Assembly (NCBI GenBank): GCA_964459725.1
Contig: CAYWNT010000005.1
Location: forward strand, 27,657 to 91,656
DNA: 64,000 bases
From: an uncultured Gammaproteobacteria bacterium
Lineage (GTDB): Bacteria > Patescibacteriota > Patescibacteriia > Patescibacteriales > UBA12075
Reading direction: 5' to 3'
Shown: piece after piece, positions 23,803 to 46,007 of the stretch
Layout: every line of letters starts with the position of its first letter
Numbering within the stretch: position 1 is the first letter of the stretch
The notes under the pieces: generated by a model
The model's input: only the letters and a program-made list of their open reading frames with translations
The model's database searches: none
Told to the model about the DNA's origin: nothing
Program-made: the position numbers and the translations under genes

Positions 23803-24016
23803 AAAAATTTATTAGCAAATATATATATTTATTTTACAAAATATTTTAAAAATATGCAACAATTTAGTTCATTTTATCTTTATCAAAAATTTAACTTTTC
23901 TTCATCTACTTTATGCTAAGAAATAACTATGATCATTGACAATTTTATAAAATATATTGGTTTTATTTTCCCTTCATTTTCAACAAGAATATGGACCACA
24001 AAAAAGGAGATACGCT

Positions 24017-25711
24017 ATGGAAACAACAAGAAAAAAAGATGTTTTCAGTAGAATCGCAAAAATGTCGTATTCTATACCAGCACTCCCGAAAATAGTATAC
24101 AAAATAATCGAATTTGAAAAAAGTGAAACATTATCCATACAAAATATTGCGGAAATTATTAACGGGTCTTCCGGAATAGCTGCCAATGTTTTGAAGACGG
24201 CAAATTCCAGTTTTTTTGGCTCAGGAACAAAGATAACCACCATTCGAGATGCCATTGTTAGAATCGGACTAAATATAACAAAAAACATTGCACTAAGCGT
24301 ATCCATCTTGAATCTCGTTGGCAATAAATCTGGGCTTGAAAAAAAAATTTGGGAAAGTATATTCATCACCGCAATATGCTCGAAAATAATTACCGAGCAT
24401 ATTGACGAAAGTCGAAGCGAAGAGCTCTTCACCGCTGGATTGATTTCAAACATCGGCATATTGATCTTTGTCCGACTCTACGGAGATGAATATCTAGAAA
24501 TACTTAGAAAAAAATTTAATGAAGGAATATGTCTTTCCGAGGCAGAGAAATCTACTTTTGGGGTCGATCATGCCGAACTTGGAGGATTAATTCTAGACGT
24601 TTGGAAATTCCCAGAGTCAGTTGTAAGAATCGCAGAAAACCACCATAAAAAATTATCTCAAGAAAAAGATAATTTAGAAGATGGAGCTATAGTTCAAATT
24701 TCTGAAGATGTAAGCGACCTTTTAGTCAGAGGGAGTGCCGACTCCTATCTTAAGGTTATGACAATGCTCTCAAATAATTTCGGCTTCAACACCGAACAAA
24801 GTGAAAAAATCATAGAAAGGGTAAAATATGAAACAATCCATACGGCAAAAGCACTTGGTATGAAAAATCCACTAACCGTATCATTGGAGCAGATACGCTA
24901 TAGCGCCATTGATCTTTTACTCAAGAGAAGTAATAAAAATGAAATCATGCTAAATAGTTTAAAAAATCAAGCGTCTATGCCTCATTGTGATCAAAAATTA
25001 CTCAGCCTGGGTATGCTCGCAAAAGGGCTTTCGCATGATTTTAACAATTTAGTTACTGTTATTCATGGTGGTGCTGAAATGTTAAAAGAAGATTTTTTTA
25101 GTGACTGTGATAATGAAATTCTAAACAGCATTATCCGTTCTGCAAATGAATCCAAAAATCTTTTAGGACAAATTAAAGTCTTCACAAAGCAATGCCCTGT
25201 TGAAGACAGAGCTATTAATCTCTACCAAGTAATTTCAGAAACTTTAGACATAATCAAAATAACTTTTCCAAAAACTACAAAAATCAAAACTGATATTGAC
25301 GAGAATGACTGCATTGTCTATGCTAATGAATCTTTCCTGCATAGAGTGGTCATGAATCTTCTGATTAATGCCGCTGAGGCTATCGGGATTAAATCAAAAG
25401 CACTTATTGAGATAAAGCTCAAAAAAGTAAGCGTGGACAAAAATATCATAATGCACAATGGTGAAGCAAGGGAAGGAGAATATGCAAAAATAACCGTTAG
25501 CGACAATGGCTGCGGAATGAGCGAAGGAACAAAAAGGAAAATCTTCAATCCTTGTTTTTCAACAAAAAATAAAGAAAACAATCAAGGAATAGGACTCTCT
25601 AGTGTTCGAGAAATAATAAGAAACTACGAAGGGTTCATTATTGTAAACAGCGAGGAAGGCTTGGGCACTGCAATTGATGTGTTCCTGCCAATCCACAGAG
25701 AAAAACCATAA
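24017..25711 (+). CDS. HDOD-domain histidine kinase
   Basis: Start at METTRKK with AAGGAG SD; HDOD (PALPKIVYKII...IRDAIVRIGLN), H-box LSHDFNNL, HATPase NLLINAAEAI..DNGCGM..GIGLS. Confidence 0.8.
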   Translation: METTRKKDVFSRIAKMSYSIPALPKIVYKIIEFEKSETLSIQNIAEIINGSSGIAANVLKTANSSFFGSGTKITTIRDAIVRIGLNITKNIALSVSILNLVGNKSGLEKKIWESIFITAICSKIITEHIDESRSEELFTAGLISNIGILIFVRLYGDEYLEILRKKFNEGICLSEAEKSTFGVDHAELGGLILDVWKFPESVVRIAENHHKKLSQEKDNLEDGAIVQISEDVSDLLVRGSADSYLKVMTMLSNNFGFNTEQSEKIIERVKYETIHTAKALGMKNPLTVSLEQIRYSAIDLLLKRSNKNEIMLNSLKNQASMPHCDQKLLSLGMLAKGLSHDFNNLVTVIHGGAEMLKEDFFSDCDNEILNSIIRSANESKNLLGQIKVFTKQCPVEDRAINLYQVISETLDIIKITFPKTTKIKTDIDENDCIVYANESFLHRVVMNLLINAAEAIGIKSKALIEIKLKKVSVDKNIIMHNGEAREGEYAKITVSDNGCGMSEGTKRKIFNPCFSTKNKENNQGIGLSSVREIIRNYEGFIIVNSEEGLGTAIDVFLPIHREKP

Positions 25712-25720
25712 AACAATCAA

Positions 25721-25750
25721 AAGGCTGGTGATAATCATCAGCCTTTTAAA
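25721..25750 (+). terminator. Rho-independent terminator
   Basis: AAGGCTGGTGAT-AAT-CATCAGCCTT then TTT. Confidence 0.65.
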
Positions 25751-25839
25751 ATTCTAAAAACGCCTATACCTTGACATATATTATATTTTTGTCTAAAATT
25801 ACAAAAAATATAATTTCTGTTTTCACGGGAGGCAAAAAA

Positions 25840-26247
25840 ATGGAAACAAAAATAACATATTTAAGTCCTGTTAATTATGATACGTGCCGTGATGGACAGC
25901 AAACTTTTGTTAGATCGATGCAAATTGGCCTTATTATCAAAAATGTAGAAGTATATTATCCATTAATTATAATCGATATTGTTAAAAACAAAATTGAAAT
26001 ATCGTGCGCAAGAGGCTTCATAGGAAACGATCATATATTTTTTGAAGAAGAGATTCCAGTAGACATTTCACAAAAGGCCTTTCGGTGGGCCGAAAAAAAC
26101 AAGCAAGAAATTGAAAGGCTAGGAGAGAAAAATATCCACGCCAAGGCTGTAGAATTTTTGAGAATAATAAACTGGGGCTACTTTGCGGAGATAATTAAGG
26201 AAAAATACTCATACGATTTACTGCTAGATATGCAACCCGTACCTTAA
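25840..26247 (+). CDS. Hypothetical protein
   Basis: GGGAGG SD before METKITYLSP; 135 aa; no family recognised. Confidence 0.5.
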   Translation: METKITYLSPVNYDTCRDGQQTFVRSMQIGLIIKNVEVYYPLIIIDIVKNKIEISCARGFIGNDHIFFEEEIPVDISQKAFRWAEKNKQEIERLGEKNIHAKAVEFLRIINWGYFAEIIKEKYSYDLLLDMQPVP

Positions 26248-26256
26248 AGGATAGTA

Positions 26257-26424
26257 GTGGTGACAGAAAAAAATAAAGCGAAAAATAAAAAACAAGCTGC
26301 CATAGAAACATGCTGCGAGAAAAATTCTGTATATTTTCCCGATAAATCACGACACGTAAAAATGCGATGTCAGATATGCGGAAGAATAAAAACAAGCATC
26401 TCAAAAGAGGAGACAAAAAAATAA
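26257..26424 (+). CDS. Small Cys-containing hypothetical protein (55 aa, GTG start)
   Basis: VVTEKNKAKNKKQAAIETCCEKNSVYFPDKSRHVKMRCQICGRIKTSISKEETKK; CC..CxxC; immediately followed by a strong terminator. Confidence 0.35.
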   Translation: MVTEKNKAKNKKQAAIETCCEKNSVYFPDKSRHVKMRCQICGRIKTSISKEETKK

Positions 26425-26458
26425 AAGCGGTTCGAAAACTCGACACCGCTTTTTTTAT
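26425..26458 (+). terminator. Rho-independent terminator
   Basis: AAGCGGTTCGA-AAAC-TCGACACCGCTT then TTTTTT. Confidence 0.7.
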
Positions 26459-26470
26459 TTTTAGCTAATT

Positions 26471-26683
26471 TCAAAACCCCATTCTTTTCATGCCTCTAAA
26501 AAAACTTTTTACGTCTCTCGTGTTCCACGCCATAAAACCACCTTGGCGTTTCCAGATTATACAAGCGATAATAACTGACAGCCACATTATCGGGCTAAAT
26601 GGAAACAGGCAAATTGCTAAAACTGAAAAACCTAAAAAAAACAAATCACATATCATAGCCATAACCTGAATAAAGTAAATCAT
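26471..26683 (-). CDS. Small membrane protein (hypothetical)
   Basis: 70 aa, two hydrophobic segments, basic C-terminus. Confidence 0.4.
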   Translation of the reverse strand: MIYFIQVMAMICDLFFLGFSVLAICLFPFSPIMWLSVIIACIIWKRQGGFMAWNTRDVKSFFRGMKRMGF

Positions 26684-26868
26684 GACACTCCTCCCGGATA
26701 TAAAAATGTCTTAAAAATTACACTACAAAGAACAAAAATCCTGAAATATTTCTCCAGGTTGTTTTTCTAGATTACATTGTTTTTAGCCGAAAGTCAATCT
26801 TGGGAAAATATTTAAATAATGGTTTTTCGCTATAATTTTTAGCAAAATTCAAAATATTAACTTTTTAC

Positions 26869-26897
26869 TTGATTTTTATGTATTTTTTTGCTATATT
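26869..26897 (+). promoter_or_regulatory. Sigma70-type promoter of the micro-ORF unit
   Basis: TTGATT (26869-74) - 17 nt - TATATT (26892-97); near-identical in layout to promoter at 29570. Confidence 0.5.
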
Positions 26898-26941
26898 AAA
26901 ATTAACTTAAAGGGATTTAAAATTTAAACCTGGAGAAAGTC

Positions 26942-27157
26942 ATGGACAAATGCGCATTGCCTACTGAAAAAGGAAGTAGCATTTAAGGAGATTCCAATGG
27001 AAAAAGGAGCGAGTCCCATTCAACACATTACAGACGAAGAGAAAGGTGACTAACATGAAAACCAGGCTGGAGTTGCAAGACGACTAAACACCAGGAGGCT
27101 ATCATGCACGAAAAAGAGAACACAATGCTCTTTGATTGGCCCATTTGTGAAGGATGA
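26942..27157 (+). other. Four tandem SD-led micro-ORFs (14, 18, 10, 17 aa) or a structured leader/ncRNA
   Basis: ORF1 26942-26986 MDKCALPTEKGSSI (GGAGAAAGTC-ATG); ORF2 26997-27053 MEKGASPIQHITDEEKGD (TAAGGAG); ORF3 27055-27087 MKTRLELQDD (1 nt after ORF2 stop); ORF4 27104-27157 MHEKENTMLFDWPICEG (AGGAGG). Confidence 0.45.
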
Positions 27158-27205
27158 CTAGAGTGCGAACCCTAAAGATAAACAATTTTCTCCCCACCCC
27201 AAAAT

Positions 27206-27250
27206 CCTGTTTTCTGAAAAAAATCAGAAAGCAGGGTTTTTTCTTTTTTT
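27206..27250 (+). terminator. Rho-independent terminator closing the micro-ORF unit, 110 nt before pyrH
   Basis: CCTGTTTTCTGA-AAAAAA-TCAGAAAGCAGG then GTTTTTTCTTTTTTT. Confidence 0.75.
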
Positions 27251-27361
27251 CGGAAATATAAAAAGTCAAAAAAAACAACAAACACTTTTATAATACCCCA
27301 CTCCCTGCTATAATATTATAAGAAAAACAAAATTTAATTATTAATTTTAAAAAAATAATAA

Positions 27362-28048
27362 ATGCCAAAAAAAATATTCATCATCTCTCTGGGAGGATCA
27401 CTGATCGCTACTGATGAGGGAATTAATCATTCTTATTTGAAAAAATTTCGAGAGTTAATCCTAAAGCAGATAAAGAAAGGTCATAAATTCTTCCTGATCG
27501 CCGGAGGTGGAGTTACAGCTAGGAGCTACATCCGAGCAGCTGATAAAATTACAAAGGTGACAGATGATGATCGTGACTGGCTTGGTATTCACTCTACTCG
27601 CTTGAACGCCCACCTGGTCAGAACTATTTTTAAAAAAGAAGCGCATAGACAAATTGTTAAAAATCCGACTTTTCACATGCACACTAACAAAAAAATTATC
27701 GTCAGCGGAGGCTGGAAACCGGGCTGGTCAACTGACTATGTAGCCACTATGATTGCTCAGGAATATGAAATACCAACCGTAATTAATCTCTCCAATATCG
27801 ACTACGCCTACGACAAAGATCCTCGTAAACATAAAAATGCGAAAAAAATGATAGATATAACTTGGAAAGACTTCAGAAAAATCGTTGGCGACAAGTGGTC
27901 ACCGGGCCAGAGCGCTCCATTCGACCCGATTGCTTCCAGAAAGGGAGACCAACTCGGACTAAAAGTTATCATCGCTAATGGGACTAAGCTGAAAAATTTG
28001 GAAAAAATATTTAACGATGAGAAATATAACGGCACAACCATAAACTAA
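27362..28048 (+). CDS. pyrH: UMP kinase, archaeal-type (amino acid kinase family)
   Basis: 228 aa; IISLGGS.., AGGGVTAR, SGGWKPGWSTD, C-terminal ..NGTTIN parallels archaeal PyrH as I recall it (..GTTIEP). Confidence 0.72.
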   Translation: MPKKIFIISLGGSLIATDEGINHSYLKKFRELILKQIKKGHKFFLIAGGGVTARSYIRAADKITKVTDDDRDWLGIHSTRLNAHLVRTIFKKEAHRQIVKNPTFHMHTNKKIIVSGGWKPGWSTDYVATMIAQEYEIPTVINLSNIDYAYDKDPRKHKNAKKMIDITWKDFRKIVGDKWSPGQSAPFDPIASRKGDQLGLKVIIANGTKLKNLEKIFNDEKYNGTTIN

Positions 28049-28120
28049 AAGTAAAATCACATCAAATAAAAAAACGTAGAGAAAATGAACTATTTTTGTT
28101 CATTTTCTCTACGTTTAAGC

Positions 28121-29293
28121 CTACTTAAGACCGTGGCAAGTCTTAAATACCTCACATTTTCTACAATTGCCAATTTTACTGGCAGCCGCTCCTTGTATTT
28201 TTCCACCACAAAATGTTCCATCCTTTACCCAGCACTTATGACCATCATCAGGATAAGCTGGACAAACGCCAAACTCAGCTACATTGACGCCTCCCTTTTG
28301 GCGACCGCATTTTTTCACTTCCCAACAATTAGGCAAATTGATATTATTCCGCTGTCCAAAAATTTGTAAATAAAGTTGCAAAACAAAATCAGTTGTCGTA
28401 GAAGCTTGCTTTCCTATGTCAGCTGCTATAGCAGCCAATTGATCAGATCGGTCGACATTGGCCTGAGTTACTCCGCCAAGACTGGAAATTACCTGACTTA
28501 CTTCTCCTATACTGATTGATTGCTCATTTGTGGCATTGGCGATTTCATCAACCAAATTCATTACTTCCATCTGGTCATTTTTCACATTCTCAAAAACCGA
28601 CTCTGTGTCAACTACTATACCAAATGATTCTTCTATTCCATTCGTGATGCCTTCAATTGAAACCGAAGTCTCTTTTGCAGCTTCTGTCGCACGCAAAGCC
28701 AAATTTCTCACCTCATCTGCCACAACAGAAAATCCCATACCTGCTTTTCCTGCTCGGGCAGCCTCTACCGCAGCGTTTAAAGCAAGCAGATTTGTCTGAA
28801 AGGCTATCCCGTCAATTATCTTTACAATTTTGCTTGCTTCTTCACTAACCCTCCTGATGTCCGTCATTTTATTTTTCACTCCGGTTGTTAAGTCAGAAGC
28901 ATTGGTAATCATGTTGCTAAAATCTCTCACCAAAATATTCATCTCTTTGGAGTTTTCAGCATTCTTCTTAGTAGTCGAGGAAGTTTCCTCCAGAGATACC
29001 GAGCTCTCCTCCAAGGCTACCGCCTGAGATGAAGTATCCCTGGCCAATGACTTACTGGCTGACAACATATTCTGAGACGTAACATCAAACTCTCCTGCTC
29101 TATCGACTAAGGCATCGACAACCACACTAAGCTTTCCAACAATGCCCCGAGACAAAAGCTCTGATACTCCAATCGCCACCAAAACTGCTAACAACGCAGC
29201 ATAAGGCAAAGGCAAAAACTCATTAACAACAAAAACAATCAAACCGCAAAGAAAAAAACAAACATATATTTTTTTACGTATCCCAAACTTCAT
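28121..29293 (-). CDS. Methyl-accepting chemotaxis protein signalling domain with C-terminal Cys-rich (two-CW-like) domain
   Basis: 2 TM; [37 protein letters not shown]; C-terminus [42 protein letters not shown]. Confidence 0.85.
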
Positions 29294-29569
29294 TATCTCC
29301 TCCTTATGTCTCCCCTTACAGTTGGCAAGGTAAATTTGTTAATGCAAAGTCATAAAAATCAAAAGAACAAATAATATCTTAACCATTCTTTGAAAAGCAA
29401 AAATATAACTAAATAATTACGTACAGCTTATCTTATTATTTCGTATTTTGCAAATTTGTTTGGCTATTTTAAAGAGTCTCTTTAAAAATTATTATTCAAG
29501 CGCATCTAAAAGTCATTAAATACTTTTATATCTTAATATTTTTATTTTGTTTATTGCCTATCCAGCCCC

Positions 29570-29597
29570 TTGATTTTTTATATTTTTCCGCTATACT
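29570..29597 (+). promoter_or_regulatory. Sigma70-type promoter upstream of RT non-coding region
   Basis: TTGATT (29570-75) - 16 nt - TATACT (29592-97). Confidence 0.5.
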
Positions 29598-29603
29598 AGT
29601 AGC

Positions 29604-29801
29604 AAGGCTGCCTTTTTACTGCCTTTTGTGTTTTTTGCAAAGGGTAAAAAAAGGGTCATCTGTGATCGGATGGCTCATTCATTGTAAACTGCAACTTCTG
29701 CCAAGTCCTGCACAATCGATTTATGCTGTAACTACGCAGGCTCTGACAAACGCTGTTGGCAGTTTCACAATCCTGAGACTTTGAAATCGTCGTAGCACCT
29801 T
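29604..29801 (+). ncRNA. Candidate retron msr/msd-like structured non-coding RNA (boundaries uncertain)
   Basis: G+C-richer than flanks by eye; hairpins 29653-29676 and 29698-29762; possible end pairing 29604-11 with 29795-801; directly upstream of a retron-type RT. Confidence 0.4.
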
Positions 29802-29969
29802 ATTTTATTATTATTATGATGATTATTAAAAAGTTTCACAACTTAAGTTTTCTGGGATGTTTTATGATCAAAATTATCTAATAAAATTGCCCAAGAAGAC
29901 TGCAACCGCTCTTTCAGGTGGGAGAACTTGAACTTTTCCTATTTACGAGCGGGAGGAGCCTTAACTTGT

Positions 29970-30004
29970 GGGAGGTGTGTTTTATCCACCTCCCTCTTTC
30001 TTTT
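29970..30004 (+). terminator. Terminator/attenuator-like hairpin 25 nt upstream of RT start
   Basis: GGGAGGTG (29970-77) / CACCTCCC (29987-94), 9-nt loop, then TCTTTCTTTT. Confidence 0.5.
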
Positions 30005-30028
30005 ACAACTAAATACGAGGAGGAAGAA

Positions 30029-31066
30029 ATGGTCAGTGAAGATATTCTTCAGAAATACTACTACATTTTTAAAGAATATTTCTCTGTTCCTCCCGCATAT
30101 TTTGACGGACTCTACTATACAATTTGTTCTAAAGAAGAATTGTATAGAAAAAGTAGAGAGCCCAAAAAAAACGGAGGATTCAGAGAAATACACGCACCCT
30201 GCGAAGCATTAAAATTGATCCAAAGAAAATTGCATAAGTATTTTAGTACAATTGAAATTGATGATAATCTTTTTGCCTACAGAGAAGGTGGGTCACCGAT
30301 AAAAAATGCAATTAGCCACGTAAAGGACAACAAGGGGCCGGAGTGGATGCTGAAAATGGATTTGAAAAATGCATTTCCTTCTGTAGACGCCCCCCTGCTT
30401 CAGATTGTACTACGAGCAATTCTCATTGAGAACGATAAGCTCCAAGAAGAGTTTGATTCATTTATTGGATTTGATCGCAATTTTGACGAATTTATTAAAA
30501 TTCTCATCTCTCTTGTAACTCACAACGAACGTCTAACCCAGGGAGCTCCATCATCCCCATCCTTGCTCAATCTTTCCTTGACCTATCTTGGTATAATTTC
30601 CGAGATAAAATCATTGTGCCAAAAACACGGTGTTAATTTTTCTGTCTACTCTGATGATTTTGTCTTTACATCAAATACAAAAATTTCAAAAAATTTCAGA
30701 AAAGACATTACAGTGATAATAGAGGGAATGGGATTTTTTGAAGTAAACCCAGAAAAAACCATGCTGAGCAATTTCCGTCATAGAGCGCATAAAATAACCG
30801 GAGTAGTTCTCACAGTAAATCCAATTGGAAATATAAGATTCACCCTTCCTCAAAAAACAATAAAAACTTACAGGGGAAAAATCAACAGGGTAATTAAGAT
30901 GTTGTCTGAGGGGAAATACCCAACCAAAAAAGAAGACGGAATATCAGTCAACGAAATCAAAGGAGAAATTAACTGGCTGCGAAGTGTCTGCGGAGATAAT
31001 CTTCCTTCAGCCGTAAGAAAACTTGTTTTCAAATTCGAAAACATACTACGGGACACAAGTCCTTAA
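30029..31066 (+). CDS. Retron-type reverse transcriptase (RT domain only, 345 aa)
   Basis: GAGGAGG SD 5 nt before ATG 30029; GGFREIHAP, NAISH (NAxxH), MDLKNAFPSV, LTQGAPSSPSLLNL, YSDDFVF, HKITGVVL motifs in canonical order. Confidence 0.85.
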   Translation: MVSEDILQKYYYIFKEYFSVPPAYFDGLYYTICSKEELYRKSREPKKNGGFREIHAPCEALKLIQRKLHKYFSTIEIDDNLFAYREGGSPIKNAISHVKDNKGPEWMLKMDLKNAFPSVDAPLLQIVLRAILIENDKLQEEFDSFIGFDRNFDEFIKILISLVTHNERLTQGAPSSPSLLNLSLTYLGIISEIKSLCQKHGVNFSVYSDDFVFTSNTKISKNFRKDITVIIEGMGFFEVNPEKTMLSNFRHRAHKITGVVLTVNPIGNIRFTLPQKTIKTYRGKINRVIKMLSEGKYPTKKEDGISVNEIKGEINWLRSVCGDNLPSAVRKLVFKFENILRDTSP

Positions 31067-31090
31067 ACTAATTAAAACTTCACATTCATA

Positions 31091-31123
31091 CCCAATCGCA
31101 ATTACGCGGTTGGGTATTTTTTT
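31091..31123 (+). terminator. Rho-independent terminator of RT gene
   Basis: CCCAATCGC-AATTAC-GCGGTTGGG then TATTTTTTT. Confidence 0.75.
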
Positions 31124-31132
31124 ATAAAAAAA

Positions 31133-31175
31133 CAGGGTTAATCATGTTTCACTTGTGTGAAAATGATTAACCCTG
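31133..31175 (-). terminator. Long hairpin terminator of the convergent 60-aa ORF
   Basis: CAGGGTTAATCATGTTTCAC-TTGT-GTGAAAATGATTAACCCTG (about 19 bp, one bulge); U-tract on minus strand at 31121-31132. Confidence 0.7.
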
Positions 31176-31209
31176 GCTTGGCTCAGCAAATGCTTATTCT
31201 CCGAATAGT

Positions 31210-31392
31210 TTAAGCAATAGCTGTTGCGCCGGTCGCCTCAAGGGGGACAAAAGATTCACCGTAACATGGCTCGACAGGAATCACCTGGGCAGCATCATCG
31301 GCTGTATCATGGCAGAGTACCTTACATTCATCGGTAGGATTGGCTTTCAGTCGGCGGCGGTGATCATGTTTTCTTCCAGTTGGAACGGTCAT
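31210..31392 (-). CDS. G+C-rich small ORF (60 aa, hypothetical)
   Basis: AGGAGG SD 7 nt before ATG; MTVPTGRKHDHRRRLKANPTDECKVLCHDTADDAAQVIPVEPCYGESFVPLEATGATAIA; own promoter candidate TTGACT-16-TAAAAT (31523-31496, minus strand) and terminator. Confidence 0.55.
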   Translation of the reverse strand: MTVPTGRKHDHRRRLKANPTDECKVLCHDTADDAAQVIPVEPCYGESFVPLEATGATAIA

Positions 31393-31689
31393 GGCAATAC
31401 CTCCTAGGCATTTTTTGCGCTCTTATGCTATCCAAGTGCATAGATGCGCTTCTCCAATTGTTCAGAGCTTAGCTCTGAAAACCTTATTTAATTATATTTT
31501 AACAAATTCTTAATTTAAGTCAAGAAAAAATAAAAAAAATTTAAATTAATAATAAATTCTTTATTATTAGCGAATATTCTCACATTTAATTCAAACAAAA
31601 AATAACAACACTTGCCTTATCTCCAACTTTTTAAAACTTTTCCACAGCCAAAGATTACCCAAAAATTTCGTAGGTCTCTTGCTTTATTT

Positions 31690-31733
31690 AATTAATAGTA
31701 CTTTTAATAGTACTATTAAAAGTACTATTAATT
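31690..31733. promoter_or_regulatory. Perfect 44-bp palindrome with three AGTACT cores (candidate operator)
   Basis: Checked base by base: 31690-31733 is self-complementary; AGTACT at 31697, 31709, 31721 (12-bp spacing); 116 nt upstream of the HD-domain gene. Confidence 0.6.
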
Positions 31734-31848
31734 TTCAAATCTACAATCAACTCCCACCAATTAAATCATCTCCACTTCTCCAAACTCTACTCACTTAAAA
31801 AATTATTTTAGCTTTACAAATCTACAAATATACAGTAAAATAACATCA

Positions 31849-32736
31849 ATGAATAAAAATCAACTCGAAAAAAAATTATATAAAATTGCAGAGTCTCTTA
31901 GTGCGAAAGACAAGAAAATCTTATTAAAAGCCTATGAGCTTGCCGAAAAAGTTCATAAACACCAAAAAAGAAAATCCGGCGCCCCTTTTATTGTCCACCC
32001 ACTAGCAGTAGCCATTAATCTTTGGGAACAATTTAAAGATGTAGATCTTACTATAGCAGGACTCCTCCACGACACCATTGAGGATGGAGGGAAAGCTTAT
32101 GAAAAGGAAATATACGAAAACTTTGGAAAAGAAATCGGCTTCATGGTTGACGCCCTAAACAAAAGATCGAAAGGATTTTATAAAAAAAGAAAGAAATTTA
32201 CAGATAGGACAAAGAGGTTTTTATGGGCCGGCCTTCAGAACCCCTACATATTTCTATTAAAAATTGCTGACAGAGAACAAAATTTATTAGACGTTGAAAA
32301 CCTCCCCTCTAACAAACAAGTGAGGATCTCATTTGAAACTCAGGCCATCTATGAACCACTAAGAAAAATTCTGAATTATGAAGAATGCAATGATACTAAT
32401 ATAGTTAAATTGAAAAAAGATTTAAACAAATTTATCAAATCTCATAACCTAAAAGACATTAAAGCTCTAAAAAATTATTTAATAAGCGAATACTACAAAG
32501 GATTCACCACGGAAACATTTAACGAGGTATATAAAAATTCAGATAAAATAATTTGGGAAACAAATGATATGGATGAGTTTGCCAAGCTATGTAAAAATAA
32601 ACAATTTGATGAAAGTGTGACAATTGTATCTATGCAAAGCGAAGAATCAAAAAGATCAGTCTTATTTCACTTTAAACTAGCACATGTTGGAGATAAAAAA
32701 ATCAAAGAATTAAAAATAAAATCATTTAAATCATAA
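31849..32736 (+). CDS. HD-domain (p)ppGpp hydrolase-like protein (RelA/SpoT hydrolase domain, SAH-like) with unknown C-terminal extension
   Basis: HKHQKRKSGAPFIVHPLAVA..AGLLHDTIEDG..FLLKIADREQNL..ETQAIYEPL follows the RSH hydrolase-domain pattern. Confidence 0.75.
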   Translation: MNKNQLEKKLYKIAESLSAKDKKILLKAYELAEKVHKHQKRKSGAPFIVHPLAVAINLWEQFKDVDLTIAGLLHDTIEDGGKAYEKEIYENFGKEIGFMVDALNKRSKGFYKKRKKFTDRTKRFLWAGLQNPYIFLLKIADREQNLLDVENLPSNKQVRISFETQAIYEPLRKILNYEECNDTNIVKLKKDLNKFIKSHNLKDIKALKNYLISEYYKGFTTETFNEVYKNSDKIIWETNDMDEFAKLCKNKQFDESVTIVSMQSEESKRSVLFHFKLAHVGDKKIKELKIKSFKS

Positions 32737-32738
32737 AT

Positions 32739-33704
32739 ATGAAAAGTTTTCATAGCACAATCACAGATCAGGAGCTGGACGCTGAATTTAAAAGCAATTT
32801 AGAACACCGCTCTTTAGAACAAAAATTTTCGTATATAAAAGAAAGTGCAGCGGCTTATTATAATAAAAAACATCTTAAATCGGCTTATATGAGCAAGCCA
32901 AGTCAAACGCTGCAATTCAACGATTATCTACAATTCGTCAAAAAAACAGTATCCCCTTCTGAAAAAACTGTTATTATAGTCTTGGGTTGCGGAAATATGA
33001 ATCAGGAAATAAAAATTTTAAAAAAACTGGGGGGAAAATACAATATAGATTTAATTGGAGTTGATTCATCAAAAGCAATGCTAGATCTTGCCCGCAAAAC
33101 TCTGAAAAAAAATAATATAAAACAGATTTTAATGCACTCTGACTTTACCAAACAAGAATTCAGAAAAAGCATTGAAAAAATGACTAAAAATTATCAAAAA
33201 AGAATTTTTTCATTTACTGGTGGCACTCTCACCAATGTAAACCAAACCGCGATTGCAGACTCTCTCTACAATCTACTTAATAAAAAAGATATACTTTGGG
33301 TTGATACAGTTTTAAGAAAAAGTTTAAAAAAAACTGATGATATTAAAAATTTTAATGCTATTTATTCCCTAACAAAAAATCCAGCTAGGGTAAATTTTTG
33401 GACACTTCCTTTAAAAAGAGCTGGAATACCCTTGGATGCTGGCAGTTTAACAATGAATACATCAGAAGAGTCATCTGTTGGTGTTATGAAATTTACCATA
33501 TCCTTTAAATTTAAAAAATTAGTAAAGATAAAATATAAAAATGAAGTTATTCATTTTTCAAAAAATGACACTATTGACTTACGACATTTTCGCTTATATC
33601 ACGCTCCTACATTTATTATTTTTTTTAAAGACCACGGGTTTAAATTGCTAGATAAGCATCTAGCTGTAAAAATGGGACAATTTATGTTTAAAAAAATGAC
33701 TTAA
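32739..33704 (+). CDS. SAM-dependent methyltransferase, EgtD-like (Methyltransf_33-like) architecture
   Basis: Motif I VIIVLGCGN; FTGGTLTNV and ILWVDTVL parallel EgtD FLGSTIGNL / LLLGTDL (recollection); 3-nt gap to upstream HD gene. Confidence 0.55.
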   Translation: MKSFHSTITDQELDAEFKSNLEHRSLEQKFSYIKESAAAYYNKKHLKSAYMSKPSQTLQFNDYLQFVKKTVSPSEKTVIIVLGCGNMNQEIKILKKLGGKYNIDLIGVDSSKAMLDLARKTLKKNNIKQILMHSDFTKQEFRKSIEKMTKNYQKRIFSFTGGTLTNVNQTAIADSLYNLLNKKDILWVDTVLRKSLKKTDDIKNFNAIYSLTKNPARVNFWTLPLKRAGIPLDAGSLTMNTSEESSVGVMKFTISFKFKKLVKIKYKNEVIHFSKNDTIDLRHFRLYHAPTFIIFFKDHGFKLLDKHLAVKMGQFMFKKMT

Positions 33705-33993
33705 TTTTTCTCAACTTCCCTTTTTCTATTTTTACCCCTTCTTTTTTAAGGAGTTCAATCTTCTTCTTGGTCCCACCGGTATATCCCCCAACTCCATGAT
33801 CACTTTTAACAACTCGATGACAAGGAATCTTTATAAGTTCCTTGTTTTTATTTAAGGCATTGCCAACCGCCCTTGCCGCACTCGGATTACCGATCGCGAT
33901 TGCGACATCTTTATAAGTCATTACACTGCCTTTAGGAATTCTCTTCACCACCTCAAATACTTTTTCCTGAAAATTTAATTTCTTATTTTTCAT
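33688..33993 (-). CDS. ogt: Methylated-DNA--protein-cysteine methyltransferase (MGMT, single domain)
   Basis: IPCHRVV active-site motif; 101 aa. Confidence 0.85.
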   Translation of the reverse strand: MKNKKLNFQEKVFEVVKRIPKGSVMTYKDVAIAIGNPSAARAVGNALNKNKELIKIPCHRVVKSDHGVGGYTGGTKKKIELLKKEGVKIEKGKLRKIKSFF

Positions 33994-34058
33994 AAACTCT
34001 GCAAATATAACTTTTTTATCTGTTGTAAACTGTTTAAATTATCCAACAGGTTAAAATA

Positions 34059-34085
34059 AAACTCGAGCTTTAAAAAGTCGAGTTT
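34059..34085 (-). terminator. Hairpin downstream of Nudix genes
   Basis: AAACTCGA-11 nt-TCGAGTTT; moderately U-rich tail on minus strand. Confidence 0.4.
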
Positions 34086-34185
34086 TATGTGTATTTTATG
34101 CAATTTTATATATCTATATCATTTTGTTTCGACCAAACAACACCATTCTTCCCCTTCTGTACTTGCTCTGAATTTCCGGCAGAAG

Positions 34186-34569
34186 TCATCCATAAGATGC
34201 CATAATAAACAAAATAAATGAACTTCTGCCTATTTCCGGTTCGCCAAGACTTATATCTCCCACAAAATTATTTACTACAAATATGTGTTCAGTTCTGTTG
34301 CTTTCTTTATTGTCGTATTCACAAAGTTTTTTATCAATTTCTACACTCAGTCCAGCCTCTTCTTTGATTTCCCTTGTTAATGCCTGCTCTGCAGATTCGC
34401 CATCCTCAACTCCCCCGCCCGGCAATACATAATACTCACGATTATCTTTAATGCGATGCATGAGCAGGATTTTATCATTCTTTATAATAACAGCCGATGC
34501 TCTATCTTTTTTAAAATCCATATTCAATATATGTTTCATTATTAAACTTCGCTTTAATACCAGCTTCAA
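34186..34569 (-). CDS. Nudix hydrolase
   Basis: Nudix box GGGVEDGESAEQALTREIKEEAGL; true start probably MKHIL/MDFKK (34539/34521); C-terminal 15 aa look atypical. Confidence 0.75.
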   Translation of the reverse strand: MKLVLKRSLIMKHILNMDFKKDRASAVIIKNDKILLMHRIKDNREYYVLPGGGVEDGESAEQALTREIKEEAGLSVEIDKKLCEYDNKESNRTEHIFVVNNFVGDISLGEPEIGRSSFILFIMASYG

Positions 34570-34942
34570 CTTGTGGAATAATATTTTTTGGTAATTCGTT
34601 TGTCTTATGCCATTTTATCTCTCCGCATTTATGCGGTTCATTGTTCTTCGGTTCACCCTCCCATTTTTCACAAACAAAAAATAAATGCATCCGCTCACCT
34701 TGATCATCCTGATTATGCATTACTAGTGGACTACTTAAATCTTCTAATTTTACATCAACATCGACTTCTTCTTTCGTCTCACGAATTATAGCACCTGTAG
34801 CTGCTTCACCTGCCTCAACTCTACCGGCAGGCAATGACCACTTGTCACTATTAAAAGAAGTGTTCTTTCTGTATAGTAAAAGAATTTCATCTTGTTTTTT
34901 TAGAATCGCAAATACTGCAATTGGGATTAATGCATTTGGCAT
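34511..34942 (-). CDS. Nudix hydrolase
   Basis: Nudix box GRVEAGEAATGAIIRETKEEVDV. Confidence 0.8.
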   Translation of the reverse strand: MPNALIPIAVFAILKKQDEILLLYRKNTSFNSDKWSLPAGRVEAGEAATGAIIRETKEEVDVDVKLEDLSSPLVMHNQDDQGERMHLFFVCEKWEGEPKNNEPHKCGEIKWHKTNELPKNIIPQVEAGIKAKFNNETYIEYGF

Positions 34943-34961
34943 AAAATTTCATTAAAATGCT

Positions 34962-35447
34962 TTATATGGATTTAAAGCCTCTTCTCTTCTTTCTGGCTTC
35001 CAGCTCTTTATCACGCTTTGAATCTTTTTCCTTTTTAATATTAACAGCGTCGTGCCATTTTTCCTTAGCCAATTCTGTCAATCTCCCTCTTCCCAATGTC
35101 TGCCTACCTGCCCACTCCCAATCTTTTTCACTTGCTTCAAATTCCTCAAGCTTCTTAAATACTTCTTCAGCCAACTCTGGATTTCTTATTTTGTTATCCC
35201 CTTCCTCCCAAGCCTCACCGGAGGCCGCAATAAAAACATTGACCCATTCATTGAATTTGGTTGCTGACTCAGCCATGAGATTCATTAGATCAAGCTGTTC
35301 TTGGTCAGTAAGGTTATCAGTGTTGTAATATATTCGATTATGCTTAAAAAAATCTCCTCCCATCTGATCTAGCTTATCAATATCTTTCCCCCTTGGCTTT
35401 TCCTTTGAAAAACCGCCTTCAAATAATTTTGTGATTTTATTTTCCAT
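34962..35447 (-). CDS. Hypothetical protein
   Basis: Start at MENKITKLFEGG; charged, W-rich; no family recognised. Confidence 0.5.
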   Translation of the reverse strand: MENKITKLFEGGFSKEKPRGKDIDKLDQMGGDFFKHNRIYYNTDNLTDQEQLDLMNLMAESATKFNEWVNVFIAASGEAWEEGDNKIRNPELAEEVFKKLEEFEASEKDWEWAGRQTLGRGRLTELAKEKWHDAVNIKKEKDSKRDKELEARKKRRGFKSI

Positions 35448-35467
35448 ATTTTTATAGTTTAAATATT

Positions 35468-35971
35468 TTATCTGCAACAAAGCAAGTCGATTGCCTTTTT
35501 GATCACTTTTTTGCTGTCAATTGAATTAATATATTTTATTCCATCAATAGAATCTAAATTAATCCATTCTGGCATGTCAGCATATTCTAACTCCTCCTCA
35601 TCTAAATTATCCTTGGATATTTCTCCGCCCACTTTTTTGACTAAAAAATATATCAATGGACAATTCCAATATTTTCCTTTGTGTTTTTTTGAATGACTTG
35701 GATCAAAAAATGAAGTTTCAACATGGATAGGTTTCAACACTTCAATCTCAAGCCCTGTTTCTTCAATAAATTCTCTCTTGAGAGCCTCCTCAATTGTCTC
35801 GTGAATATCTGTTCCTCCTCCAGGAAAATCATAACCATCCCATTGTTTAGATAATAGAATTTTATTATTTTCAATTAGAATACCGTAGACTGACGGGCGG
35901 TATGTGAGTTTATTTGATTCTATTTCTGTTTTGTTTCCATTGAGATCATGGCATAATATTTTTTTCGACAT
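35468..35971 (-). CDS. Nudix hydrolase
   Basis: Nudix box GGGTDIHETIEEALKREFIEETGL. Confidence 0.8.
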   Translation of the reverse strand: MSKKILCHDLNGNKTEIESNKLTYRPSVYGILIENNKILLSKQWDGYDFPGGGTDIHETIEEALKREFIEETGLEIEVLKPIHVETSFFDPSHSKKHKGKYWNCPLIYFLVKKVGGEISKDNLDEEELEYADMPEWINLDSIDGIKYINSIDSKKVIKKAIDLLCCR

Positions 35972-35975
35972 ATTG

Positions 35976-36764
35976 TTATATTTTATACTTTTTATGCAAA
36001 TTTTTAATTCTTTTGCTATCTTCAGTTGAAATTTTATTATAATAATCTCTTTTATTCAATAGCCATAATAACTCAAACTCCAAAGCTTTTCGTATTCCTT
36101 TTCCGACTTGTCGTTTAAGCGCATTTGGACATTTAAATATTATTTTTCTAGTTTCAAATCCTGCAAAATTAGTTTTTGGAAGTTTATTGAAAAAATCTAA
36201 AGATTTAACATCAACAGACCCGCCAACTATAAATTTCAAATCTTTCTTCTTTGCTTTTTTAATAAGAGTTTCTGCTATTTCGAATAGCTTACCTGAATTG
36301 ATATCCTTCTTTGCAAGCCCGAGAGAACTAGACATGTCTGATCTACCCAAAACAATTCCTGATAATTTATTTATATTTTCTAACTCAAGCATTTCGTCAA
36401 AATTATTATATGCATCAATTGTTTCTATATTAGCAAAAAAAGAAATACCCTCTCTCTCCTCTTTTTCCGGAAAAGCTATATCTATTGCTGATAAATATTT
36501 TTTTAAAGCAAAGGGAGATTCAATCATCGGAGCTACAATACCGGAAACACCGATAAGTCTTGCATCATATAAATCCCTAATAGCTTCAGCACCCCCTGTT
36601 TTTATAGTTAAATCCAATCCAGCTTTAGTAACGATTTCTTTTAGGCGCAAAAGTTCAGTCAGACGACTTCCTTCTGCCTCAAATTCAGCCTTTACACCAA
36701 CAACCGAATATTCCTTCTTTAGTTCCTTTAGCATATTTAACATTTTTATTTCTAGTTTAGTCAT
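35976..36764 (-). CDS. HpcH/HpaI aldolase / citrate-lyase-beta-like family protein (tentative)
   Basis: VKAEFEAEG.., GIVAPMIESP.., ANIETIDA pattern resembles the TIM-barrel aldolase/citrate lyase family. Confidence 0.45.
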   Translation of the reverse strand: MTKLEIKMLNMLKELKKEYSVVGVKAEFEAEGSRLTELLRLKEIVTKAGLDLTIKTGGAEAIRDLYDARLIGVSGIVAPMIESPFALKKYLSAIDIAFPEKEEREGISFFANIETIDAYNNFDEMLELENINKLSGIVLGRSDMSSSLGLAKKDINSGKLFEIAETLIKKAKKKDLKFIVGGSVDVKSLDFFNKLPKTNFAGFETRKIIFKCPNALKRQVGKGIRKALEFELLWLLNKRDYYNKISTEDSKRIKNLHKKYKI

Positions 36765-36821
36765 ATTGCAAAAATAATAAAATAAATGGCGCTACCTGGG
36801 TAGCGCCAATAAAAATTTTAA

Positions 36822-38267
36822 TTACTGAAAAATAATTTCCCATTTTACAGAATCAGGAGAATCTTGAATTGATACCCCCTTGGATTTTAATTCCTCCTTT
36901 ATACTGTCAGCCTGCTCATAGTCCTTCATATTCTTAGCAGATTGACGCTCTTCTAATTTTGAGTTAATGAAATCCTCAGTTAAATTCCTCTCTGCAAGAA
37001 TTTTTTCTTTTAACCTTGAAAGATATTCACTTGGATCTTCCTCAAAAAGCCTCAAAACAGAAGAAACTTTGTTAAAGATTTGGAAAAAGGATTGAAAGAT
37101 GCCAGTCTTTTCTTCCGCGGAGTATTTACTGGAATCAATAACCTTATTCAACTCTTTGAATATTTCTGTAATTTCAGAAATCACCCTTGGAGTATTAAAA
37201 TTATCATCCATTAACTCATTAAACTTTTTCTCAAAATCGGCAATAATTCCCGGAACTCGATTCAAGTCAACCTTGATATCCGCATCATTAGCAAATTCCT
37301 CCATTCGCAAAAGAGTTGTATAAAAATAGTGAAGTCGCTTCCTGGCATTTAGAAATAAGTCATCTGAAAAATCAACATTGGAACTATAAGTATGAGTAAG
37401 TATCACATACCTGATTTCCTCTGGGAAATACTTTTTCAAGGCATCCTTAACTGTTAAAAAATTTCCCAAACTTTTACTCATCTTAGTTCCGTTGATCATT
37501 ACTAGACCGTTATGAACCCAGTATTTTGCAAAAGTTTTACCTGAATAAGCTTCGCTTTGAGCAAGCTCATTTTCATGATGAGGAAATATTAAATCCAGTC
37601 CGCCTCCATGAATATCTATCTCATCGCCAAGATATTTATGAGCCATTACCGAACATTCAATATGCCATCCCGGTCGCCCTTTTGACCAAGGAGAGTCCCA
37701 ATATGGCTCACCCGGCTTATGAGGCTTCCACAGAGCAAAGTCATTGTTATTTTTCTTGCGCGGTGATTCGTCAGAATTTATCAGATCATCCCTTTTTCTG
37801 TTGGAAAGCTTGCCATACTCGACAAACTTATCAAGATCAAAAAATACTTCGCCCTCAACAACATAGGCAAATCCCTTATCAATGAGAGCTTGAATATATT
37901 CTATTATATCAGAAATGCAATCAGTGACTTTTGGCTCATGAGTGGCGTGACGCACTTTAAGTTTTTCCAGATCTTCTGAATTTTCTCTGATATAATGCTC
38001 GCTTACCTCTATTGCTTCTCTGCCTTCCTCGTTTGCTCTTTTGATTATCTTATCATCTACATCTGTAAAATTTCTTACATATGTAATCTTATATCCAAGA
38101 TATTCAAAATAAGCCCTGATAACATCATACACAACTGCCTGCCTGGCATGCCCGATATGAATTTCATCATAAGGGGTTATTCCGCAAGCATACATTTTTA
38201 ACTCCCCCTCTGACAGCGGTACAAAATCTTCCTTTTTCCTTGTTAAAGAACTGTATATTTTTATCAT
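36822..38267 (-). CDS. cysS: Cysteinyl-tRNA synthetase
   Basis: HIGHAR and KMSKSLGN class-I motifs; CGITPYD N-terminus. Confidence 0.97.
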   Translation of the reverse strand: MIKIYSSLTRKKEDFVPLSEGELKMYACGITPYDEIHIGHARQAVVYDVIRAYFEYLGYKITYVRNFTDVDDKIIKRANEEGREAIEVSEHYIRENSEDLEKLKVRHATHEPKVTDCISDIIEYIQALIDKGFAYVVEGEVFFDLDKFVEYGKLSNRKRDDLINSDESPRKKNNNDFALWKPHKPGEPYWDSPWSKGRPGWHIECSVMAHKYLGDEIDIHGGGLDLIFPHHENELAQSEAYSGKTFAKYWVHNGLVMINGTKMSKSLGNFLTVKDALKKYFPEEIRYVILTHTYSSNVDFSDDLFLNARKRLHYFYTTLLRMEEFANDADIKVDLNRVPGIIADFEKKFNELMDDNFNTPRVISEITEIFKELNKVIDSSKYSAEEKTGIFQSFFQIFNKVSSVLRLFEEDPSEYLSRLKEKILAERNLTEDFINSKLEERQSAKNMKDYEQADSIKEELKSKGVSIQDSPDSVKWEIIFQ

Positions 38268-45722: not shown

Positions 45723-45834
45723 GGGGAGCCATTCAAAAAAGGCTTCCCGTACTGGTTAATACCCTTTCGGGTATCAGCTCACACAAGCAAAAACCAGACA
45801 GAAAGCCGTCTCTGTCCTTGTGTGAGTCTTTTTA
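45723..45834 (+). ncRNA. Candidate plus-strand structured small RNA ending in a terminator
   Basis: Three consecutive hairpins (45723-48, 45759-74, 45778-826) then TCTTTTT; the first stem has a G-U pair only on the plus-strand reading. Confidence 0.35.
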
Positions 45835-46007
45835 ACCATGCCTTAAGCTAATAAGGTTTAGGTTGCTCAATTAAATTGTAACTTAAAAATAACATAAATA
45901 GCAATAAAAATCAATATTTTATTGCAAATTTAATTATACTAAACGGCTTCAACATAGTTTATCATATTGTACATAAAATTTTCCTCAAGAAATTCTAAAG
46001 TTTTTAT

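Follow-up and report, generated by a model that had tools for sequence, protein, structure and literature searches.

A retron-type reverse transcriptase and its upstream non-coding RNA gene in Patescibacteria: a probable two-component cassette without an effector gene

Retrons are currently understood as tripartite, toxin-antitoxin-like defence systems. Here we describe a stand-alone retron-type reverse transcriptase (RT) gene in a 64-kb window of DNA (64,000 nucleotides of contig CAYWNT010000005.1; coordinates are positions in this window unless a related locus, denoted L, is named). The gap of 736 bp upstream of the gene contains a GC-rich, strongly structured stretch (z = -5.7 for the fold of 29590-30035), in which we recognize a putative partner non-coding RNA (ncRNA) gene. 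Analysis of the two genes and of their relatives suggests that together they probably form a retron of only two components.

The first-pass annotation of this DNA had described an open reading frame (ORF) of 345 aa beginning at an ATG 5 nt past GAGGAGG, with RT motifs in canonical order and no fused effector domain. The sequence agrees, and NCBI/ENA annotate the identical 345-aa product. Its translation contains, from the N- to the C-terminus, GGFREIHAP, NAISH, MDLKNAFPSV, LTQGAPSSPSLLNL, YSDDFVF and HKITGVVL. RVT_1 is the sole Pfam match (E = 2e-18), and neither Pfam nor the AlphaFold2 model, which was computed with the family alignment as input (mean pLDDT 94.3 over the whole length, pTM 0.90), gives any extra domain.

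Sequence and predicted fold both identify the protein as a retron-type RT, as had been claimed from its motifs. In PADLOC, the best 25 of 43 matches are all retron RT models, led by RT_III-A (139 bits), RT_II-A (127) and RT_VI (116). Among the NCBIfam models, retron_St85_RT scores 138 bits whereas the group II maturase TIGR04416 reaches 53 bits (cutoff 300) and Drt2 (NF041746) 36 bits (cutoff 390). A search of the PDB with the family profile gives 103-127 bits for the retron RTs of Ec67, Ec86, Kva2, Ec78 and Ec83, against 74-80 for group II RTs. The top 18 PDB matches of the AlphaFold2 model in Foldseek are likewise all retron RTs (TM 0.6-0.7; best matches 9n69_E, 9kjx_A and 7v9x_A), followed by group II, G2L4, DRT9 (rank 40) and DRT2 (rank 44). 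The retron hallmarks NAxxH (NAISH) and (V/I)TG (HKITGVVL) are present, and the corresponding positions are conserved throughout the family. Placement among group II introns or diversity-generating retroelements (DGRs), which the first-pass annotation had named as an outcome that would speak against a retron, is not what we find. Group II scores are low, Rfam detects no group II intron RNA family in the 64-kb window, and repeats of the template/variable (TR/VR) type are absent from 29290-31860 and from 24000-37000, where the longest direct repeat is a 42-nt AT-rich pair of 71% identity.

The RT does not, however, fall into any described retron type. For calibration, eight RTs were scored, of which two were divergent (L004, L005) and six were typed retron RTs taken from GTDB genomes. 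Those six reach 333-638 bits on the model of their own type and about 180-330 bits on those of other types, whereas the window RT and all 39 aligned relatives stay at or below roughly 150 bits on all retron-type models and favour no type (best E-value among the 39 family members, 4e-45). Because these scores lie below those between typed RTs, the RT belongs to none of the 13 described types (I-XIII; Mestre et al. 2020, as modelled in PADLOC). The same holds for the orphan retrons of clade 2, to which there is no family-level match: the RT_Ec107-like model gives the window RT 107.5 bits, against 189-297 bits for typed RTs of other types.

A word-indexed search with the RT returned only the RT itself and matches at 30% identity or less, and an exhaustive phmmer search gave 40 representatives at E <= 1e-30, each standing for one cluster at 50% identity. 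These are 340-430 aa long and 35-43% identical to the query. In the 39-sequence alignment (A2), the catalytic residues D111, D209 and D210 are invariant, and the RT motifs are accompanied by a conserved, thumb-like C-terminal segment (LTLPQK..RGxIHRA..IL..GR.P...DG....GYI.W). Named members come from 'Patescibacteria group bacterium' and 'Candidatus Buchananbacteria', and a truncated copy is present in a metagenome-assembled genome (MAG) of Candidatus Vogelbacteria (L003; 232 bits on the family profile). A GTDB scan with the family alignment, using a motif common to all retron RTs, gave among the matches listed this truncated copy and generic retron RTs at no more than 33% identity; the generic loci were reused as negative controls below. 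No family member was found among IMG/VR viral contigs, where the best match has 166 bits against at least 290 for full-length members, and none of the 26 metagenome loci retrieved with a degenerate DNA pattern for RGxIHRA...GRxP encodes one. The host itself, earlier taken to be of the Candidate Phyla Radiation (CPR) kind, is indeed one of the Patescibacteria, since the CysRS encoded on its 123.8-kb contig clusters at 90% identity or more with a protein named 'Patescibacteria group bacterium'. As judged by these searches, the RT represents a distinct family restricted to Patescibacteria. Two further loci, L001 and L002, stem from the window's own organism and are uninformative for comparison.

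In a Myxococcota MAG, one long ORF contains two tandem retron-like RT domains (L010:4831-6996; residues 26-360 and 386-698, 148 and 194 bits on the family profile). It was rejected as a family member, its 350 bits on that profile being reached only through the two domains in tandem.

Every related locus with available upstream sequence has a gene-free gap of 280-550 bp ahead of the RT, and a common RNA layout recurs there in 11 RNA genes from 10 loci (Table 1). By this comparison, the ncRNA at 29570-30004 has the predicted anatomy of a retron msr-msd. The family promoter pattern consists of a -35 TTGAYW, a spacer of 16-18 nt and a -10 TAnnnT, with the -35 box located 33-36 nt ahead of the 5' inverted repeat a1 in 10 of the 11 related ncRNA genes and 42 nt ahead in the eleventh. 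The left edge that the first-pass annotation had drawn, 29570, is where the -35 box starts. A guanosine directly follows a1 and is a candidate for the branching nucleotide. The hairpins on the msr side differ in number and sequence among loci, whereas the next hairpin is specific to the family, with the consensus GGUCRUCUG-NNNN-CGGAYGGCU, and is a probable recognition element for the RT, by analogy. The region from there to a2 may serve as template. It holds a long hairpin (29681-29771), an AT-rich segment (about 29796-29890) and a hairpin just ahead of a2 (29906-29952), and its equivalent in the relatives is variable, spanning 65-250 nt. The end of a2 lies 1-8 nt from the next hairpin in every locus (from the Shine-Dalgarno (SD) site in L091), and this hairpin, GGGAG...CUCCC plus U-tract, is found at this place in 10 of the 11 ncRNAs, where it might act as a terminator.

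Table 1. Features of the cassette and its immediate neighbours (window coordinates; MFE, minimum free energy)
Feature	Position	Strand	Basis or remark
Divergent MCP-signal protein	28121-29293	-	upstream neighbour
Sigma-70-like promoter: -35 TTGATT (29570-29575), 16-nt spacer, -10 TATACT (29592-29597)	29570-29597	+	consensus scan
a1, 5' inverted repeat AAGGCU at predicted RNA 5' end	29604-29609	+	a1-a2 closure in MFE folds
G directly after a1, candidate branching (priming) guanosine	29610	+	present in 11/11 family ncRNAs
Variable msr-side hairpin, 11 bp	29620-29646	+	MFE folds
Family-specific hairpin GGGUCAUCUG-UGAU-CGGAUGGCUC, 10-bp stem, conserved U-G wobbles	29653-29676	+	covariation
Variable structured region from conserved hairpin to a2, candidate msd/template	29681-29956	+	folds
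a2, 3' inverted repeat AGCCUU, complementary to a1	29957-29962	+	folds, family test of paired 22-nt windows
Terminator-like hairpin GGGAGGUG...CACCUCCC (29970-29994) and U-rich tract UCUUUCUUUU (29995-30004)	29970-30004	+	folds
Shine-Dalgarno GAGGAGG	30017-30023	+	5 nt ahead of ATG, read from sequence
Retron-type reverse transcriptase, 345 aa, catalytic YSDD	30029-31066	+	Patescibacteria-restricted family
Intrinsic terminator of RT gene, 12-bp stem (31088-31117) and T-run	31088-31127	+	downstream of RT gene
Second hairpin, downstream of RT terminator	31133-31175		
60-aa ORF, convergent to RT	31210-31392	-	downstream neighbour

Conservation of the RNA can be followed in its base pairs. In the alignment of 11 ncRNAs (A6), 110 of 110 cells of the conserved hairpin are paired and 5 of its 10 pairs show compensatory double changes, a degree of pairing that none of 500 shuffles reached; such changes imply selection. 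The motif occurs on the RT strand upstream of every family RT with available upstream sequence (the regular expression misses only the variant of L088, which was counted by eye), and none of the 158 other retron-type loci scanned contains it (78 from GTDB, 80 viral; about 1.5 Mb). Its only other matches are one by chance in an unrelated locus (L099) and reverse-strand reads of the near-palindromic copies. The a1 and a2 repeats are closed with each other by the folds in all loci and, because the sequence of a1 differs in each locus, their pairing amounts to covariation. Since single a1/a2 pairs are not significant, each RNA gene was represented by two 22-nt windows, of which the first was placed by the promoter box and the second ended at the terminator hairpin, and cognate combinations were compared with non-cognate ones. 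Cognate windows contain Watson-Crick runs of 6-9 (mean 7.4) against a mean of 4.0 for non-cognate windows, and none of 100000 resamples reached the cognate mean. An alternative pairing of 29583-29592 with 29948-29957 was rejected as it lies upstream of the -10 box and does not fit the distance of 33-36 nt between -35 box and a1. In several loci the C/U-rich 3' arm and tract of the terminator-like hairpin can also pair with the purine-rich SD; this is weak evidence, because such sequences pair trivially.

One relative has two such RNA genes. In L200 (1137-1629), two tandem ncRNA genes precede a single RT (a1 to a2 at 1172-1307 and 1408-1543), each with its own promoter, terminator and a1/a2 pair (ATGCGGUA/UACCGCAU and CGUAGGUA/UACCUACG). 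Both have the same conserved hairpin, the same first template hairpin and a G after a1, and thus one RT may serve two templates.

The surroundings of the RT are as had been described, with a divergent MCP gene upstream and two terminator hairpins followed by a convergent 60-aa ORF downstream, and the accompanying claim that no effector partner can be recognized stands as well. None of the 10 neighbours in the window matches a known retron effector, and defence models give nothing beyond generic methyltransferase and NUDIX similarities 1.7-3.9 kb away. In related genomes, for which the first-pass annotation had proposed a synteny check, we looked for an effector gene fused or adjacent to the RT in all loci and found none conserved. 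The flanks of the 10 related loci inspected are made up mostly of housekeeping genes such as those for IF2, ClpP, PolA, SMC, DnaA, GatB, ValRS, L1/L11 and Wzy. Groups represented there are IF2/RbfA/ClpP/DUF2207, PolA/SMC/TrmB, DnaA/GatB/ABC transporter, RNase III/NusB/L32/ValRS and ribosomal L1/L11, together with Wzy, Exo_endo_phos, an LTD-PKD protein, and a pilin accompanied by a mechanosensitive channel. Hardly any two loci have the same flanks, and the flanking genes often run convergent or divergent to the RT. When all flanks within +/-4 kb were compared with each other, only SMC was found in common between two of nine loci (L085, L088), and the addition of L200 and L201 gave one more recurrence, the pilin and mechanosensitive-channel pair of L091 and L200; both look like shared synteny. 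The ATPase of L085 and L088 was considered as an effector and rejected, because it is a canonical SMC (N-terminus MFLKKIEIQGFKSF...GPNGSGKSN) and its sharing is therefore housekeeping synteny. Because the flanks differ among loci and hold no conserved effector, the stand-alone state appears to be the norm of the family and not the result of local decay.

The second recurrence is informative about the cassette itself. Between L091:2636-5283 and L200:34-2682 the T4SS-pilin-like genes are 72-79% and the MS_channel_1st_1 genes 63% identical, whereas identity between the RTs is only 34% and the two are oriented oppositely with respect to these orthologous neighbours. This suggests turnover or exchange of cassettes at one site, a hotspot. 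Such turnover is typical of defence genes.

We consider it probable that the cassette is a self-contained retron of two components, the ncRNA gene and the RT gene, which uses retron-type priming and of which an effector gene is not a part. In such a retron, the sigma-70-type promoter would start the ncRNA at a1 (29604), and a1 would pair with a2 to enclose the msr-type hairpins and the variable template region. The hairpin and U-tract behind a2 would stop most transcripts and read-through would allow low-level translation of the RT; a terminator-like hairpin abutting a2 would thereby keep the RNA in large excess over the RT. If characterised retrons are a guide, the RT would bind the conserved hairpin at 29653-29676, use the 2'-OH of G29610, where the a1/a2 helix ends, for priming, and take the RNA immediately 5' of a2 as template for branched multicopy single-stranded DNA (msDNA). 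Such a retron's output might be the RT-msDNA complex itself or a partner encoded elsewhere, and the biological role is most likely phage-related, as for other retrons.

Several observations weigh against this interpretation. The scores of the RT on every retron-type model, lower than those of typed RTs across types, make it peripheral, and it might therefore prime differently. The a1/a2 pairs are short (6 bp in the window, 6-9 bp in the family), only their family-wide pattern is significant, and the test of that pattern is not fully independent, as the -35 boxes had been located with the help of the a1 coordinates. The ncRNA of the window is unusually long, its a1-to-a2 span being 359 nt where the others have 136-319 nt, and contains an AT-rich insert; Rfam gives no meaningful match in 29300-30030 even at E <= 10, and none that passes the gathering threshold. 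The argument about the effector rests on the 10 related loci, several of them on short contigs, and in two of these a co-oriented gene lies directly downstream of the RT, encoding a DUF2207 protein in L083 and an LTD/PKD protein in L090.

The last point would suit an ordinary tripartite retron whose effector goes unrecognized, either as a locus-specific neighbour (here the 60-aa ORF or the MCP-like protein) or as a gene encoded in trans. High modularity is a feature of retron effectors (PMC7736814), in type VI retrons a small protein serves as the toxin (10.1101/2025.10.22.683967), and L091 and L200 both adjoin a mechanosensitive-channel-like membrane protein. The 60-aa ORF is preceded by a strong AGGAGG ribosome-binding site and has a promoter-like site (31523-31496) and a terminator hairpin (31133-31175) of its own. 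It lies in a GC-rich island (31180-31480; about 50% GC against 20-35% around it) that could be rejected as a structured RNA (fold z of -1.05 and -0.68, neither strand significantly structured, no Rfam match). However, among 5.8 billion proteins there is no homologue of this ORF, which runs convergent to the RT and is missing from all other loci, and it was therefore rejected as the effector; the MCP gene is divergent from the RT and unique to the window locus. A small toxic ORF within the ncRNA, as in the hybrid RNA of type VI, was rejected too, there being no conserved ORF or ribosome-binding site in the ncRNAs of 8 loci. With the relatives' flanks mostly housekeeping and no neighbour resembling a known effector, we regard an overlooked effector as unlikely, though one acting in trans may exist.

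A mechanism of another kind, in which complementary DNA (cDNA) is made without 2'-OH branch priming, in concatemeric or homopolymeric form as in the defence RTs DRT2 and DRT9 of the UG class, and in which the cDNA or its product is the effector, seems improbable. The first-pass annotation had raised such DRT-like logic, and the layout shares with DRT2/DRT9 its two components, a structured ncRNA gene followed by a single RT gene and no effector gene; the position of the RT outside all 13 retron-type clades is also in keeping with it. The RT is nevertheless of a different class, closer in sequence and fold to retron RTs and with their hallmark motifs, the DRT2 and DRT9 structures ranking below the 18 retron matches and most group II ones. 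The template region holds no conserved open frame. In the RNA, the a1/a2 helix is specific to retrons and ends with a G in all 11 ncRNAs, and these two features point to classical retron priming. That the cassette is a decaying remnant of a tripartite retron, or the misclassified RT of a DGR or group II intron, without current function, is very improbable and already largely refuted by the conservation data: although DGRs are the dominant RT class in CPR bacteria, about 80% of their RTs (PMC8632793), and loss of the partner protein has been proposed for the Ec107 branch (PMC7736814), about 40 divergent clusters keep the ORF intact and the RNA has undergone compensatory changes, both of which argue against a remnant, and neither TR/VR repeats nor intron RNA accompany the gene.

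Some other features of the window deserve mention. The MCP-signalling-domain protein has a Cys-rich C-terminal tail, and an HDOD-histidine kinase (23957-25711, +) is encoded near its gene; such sensory equipment is unusual for a reduced genome. A perfect palindrome of 22+22 nt without spacer (AATTAATAGTACTTTTAATAGT / ACTATTAAAAGTACTATTAATT; 31690-31733), located upstream of an HD_4-domain gene (31849-32736), may be an operator or protein-binding site. A LOOT RNA (Rfam RF03000) is found at 45745-45864 on the minus strand (56.7 bits, gathering threshold 46.4). ARAGORN detects no tRNA gene in the whole 64-kb window, and the cassette is not tRNA-associated.

Returning to the two-component retron, its lack of an effector, which had been contrasted with the tripartite make-up of characterised retrons, is not unprecedented in itself, because stand-alone (msr-msd)-RT cassettes have been reported in the Ec107 branch of clade 2 and in clade 11 of Actinobacteria (Mestre et al. 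2020, PMC7736814). Whether those cassettes use effectors in trans or work differently was left open by the same authors. Like these orphan retrons (Retron-Eco5/Ec107 and those of Actinobacteria), the present one combines a retron-type RT with a contiguous upstream ncRNA, has no specifically associated protein and is confined to one taxon. However, its RT lies outside both clades, its hosts are Patescibacteria rather than Gammaproteobacteria or Actinobacteria, its family has a conserved hairpin of its own and a terminator-like hairpin between a2 and RT, and at least one relative has two tandem ncRNA genes.

With tripartite retrons (Retron-Eco1/Ec86 of type II-A; Ec78/Ec83 of type I-A) it shares the RT fold, the NAxxH, QGxxxSP, YxDD and (V/I)TG motifs and a thumb-like C-terminal region, as well as an RNA with a1/a2 repeats, a G after a1, msr hairpins and a template region. 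It differs from them in having neither an effector gene nor a fused effector domain, and in an RT less similar to any type model than the types are to each other. To our knowledge, classical retrons co-transcribe msr, msd and ret without a terminator between msd and ret, whereas the window family has an intrinsic-terminator-like hairpin at this place. Type VI retrons (Retron-Vpa2, Retron-Sen3), in which a hybrid RNA encodes a small toxic protein, resemble the cassette in their compact RT and long structured upstream transcript, and share the idea that reverse transcription can gate translation (10.1101/2025.10.22.683967). The window, however, has no helix-turn-helix (HTH) gene, and the type VI model gives the RT only 116 bits.

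Our searches of the literature yielded no account of retrons in Patescibacteria. The phylum goes unmentioned in a 2026 survey of retrons from metagenomic genomes, whose threshold, by its own account, leaves the most divergent lineages under-represented (10.64898/2026.05.14.725207). The cassette described here would be a third, independent and deeply divergent lineage of orphan retrons, seemingly effector-less as a rule, in a phylum without described retrons. Its parts are very compact, with an RT of 345 aa and, in a relative, an ncRNA as short as 136 nt. Since they are also clearly delimited (promoter, a1/a2, recognition hairpin, terminator), they are candidates for retron-based DNA production and genome editing.

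The role of orphan (msr-msd)-RT cassettes has been an open question since 2020 (PMC7736814), and a further orphan lineage strengthens the case that an RT and its msDNA can be a complete functional unit. It is possible, though we put this forward only tentatively, that Patescibacteria harbour a deep-branching, lineage-wide class of retrons which never had, or has permanently dispensed with, a protein effector, and in which the complex of RT, msDNA and RNA is the functional output. If so, the terminator and anti-SD-like hairpin next to a2 would set the dosage of the RT, whose synthesis could thereby receive feedback from the state of the template, and one RT could serve several ncRNA genes, as in L200. 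The complex itself might then, for instance, serve as a decoy for, or sensor of, nucleic-acid enzymes of phages, or might have a cellular role in these reduced symbionts.

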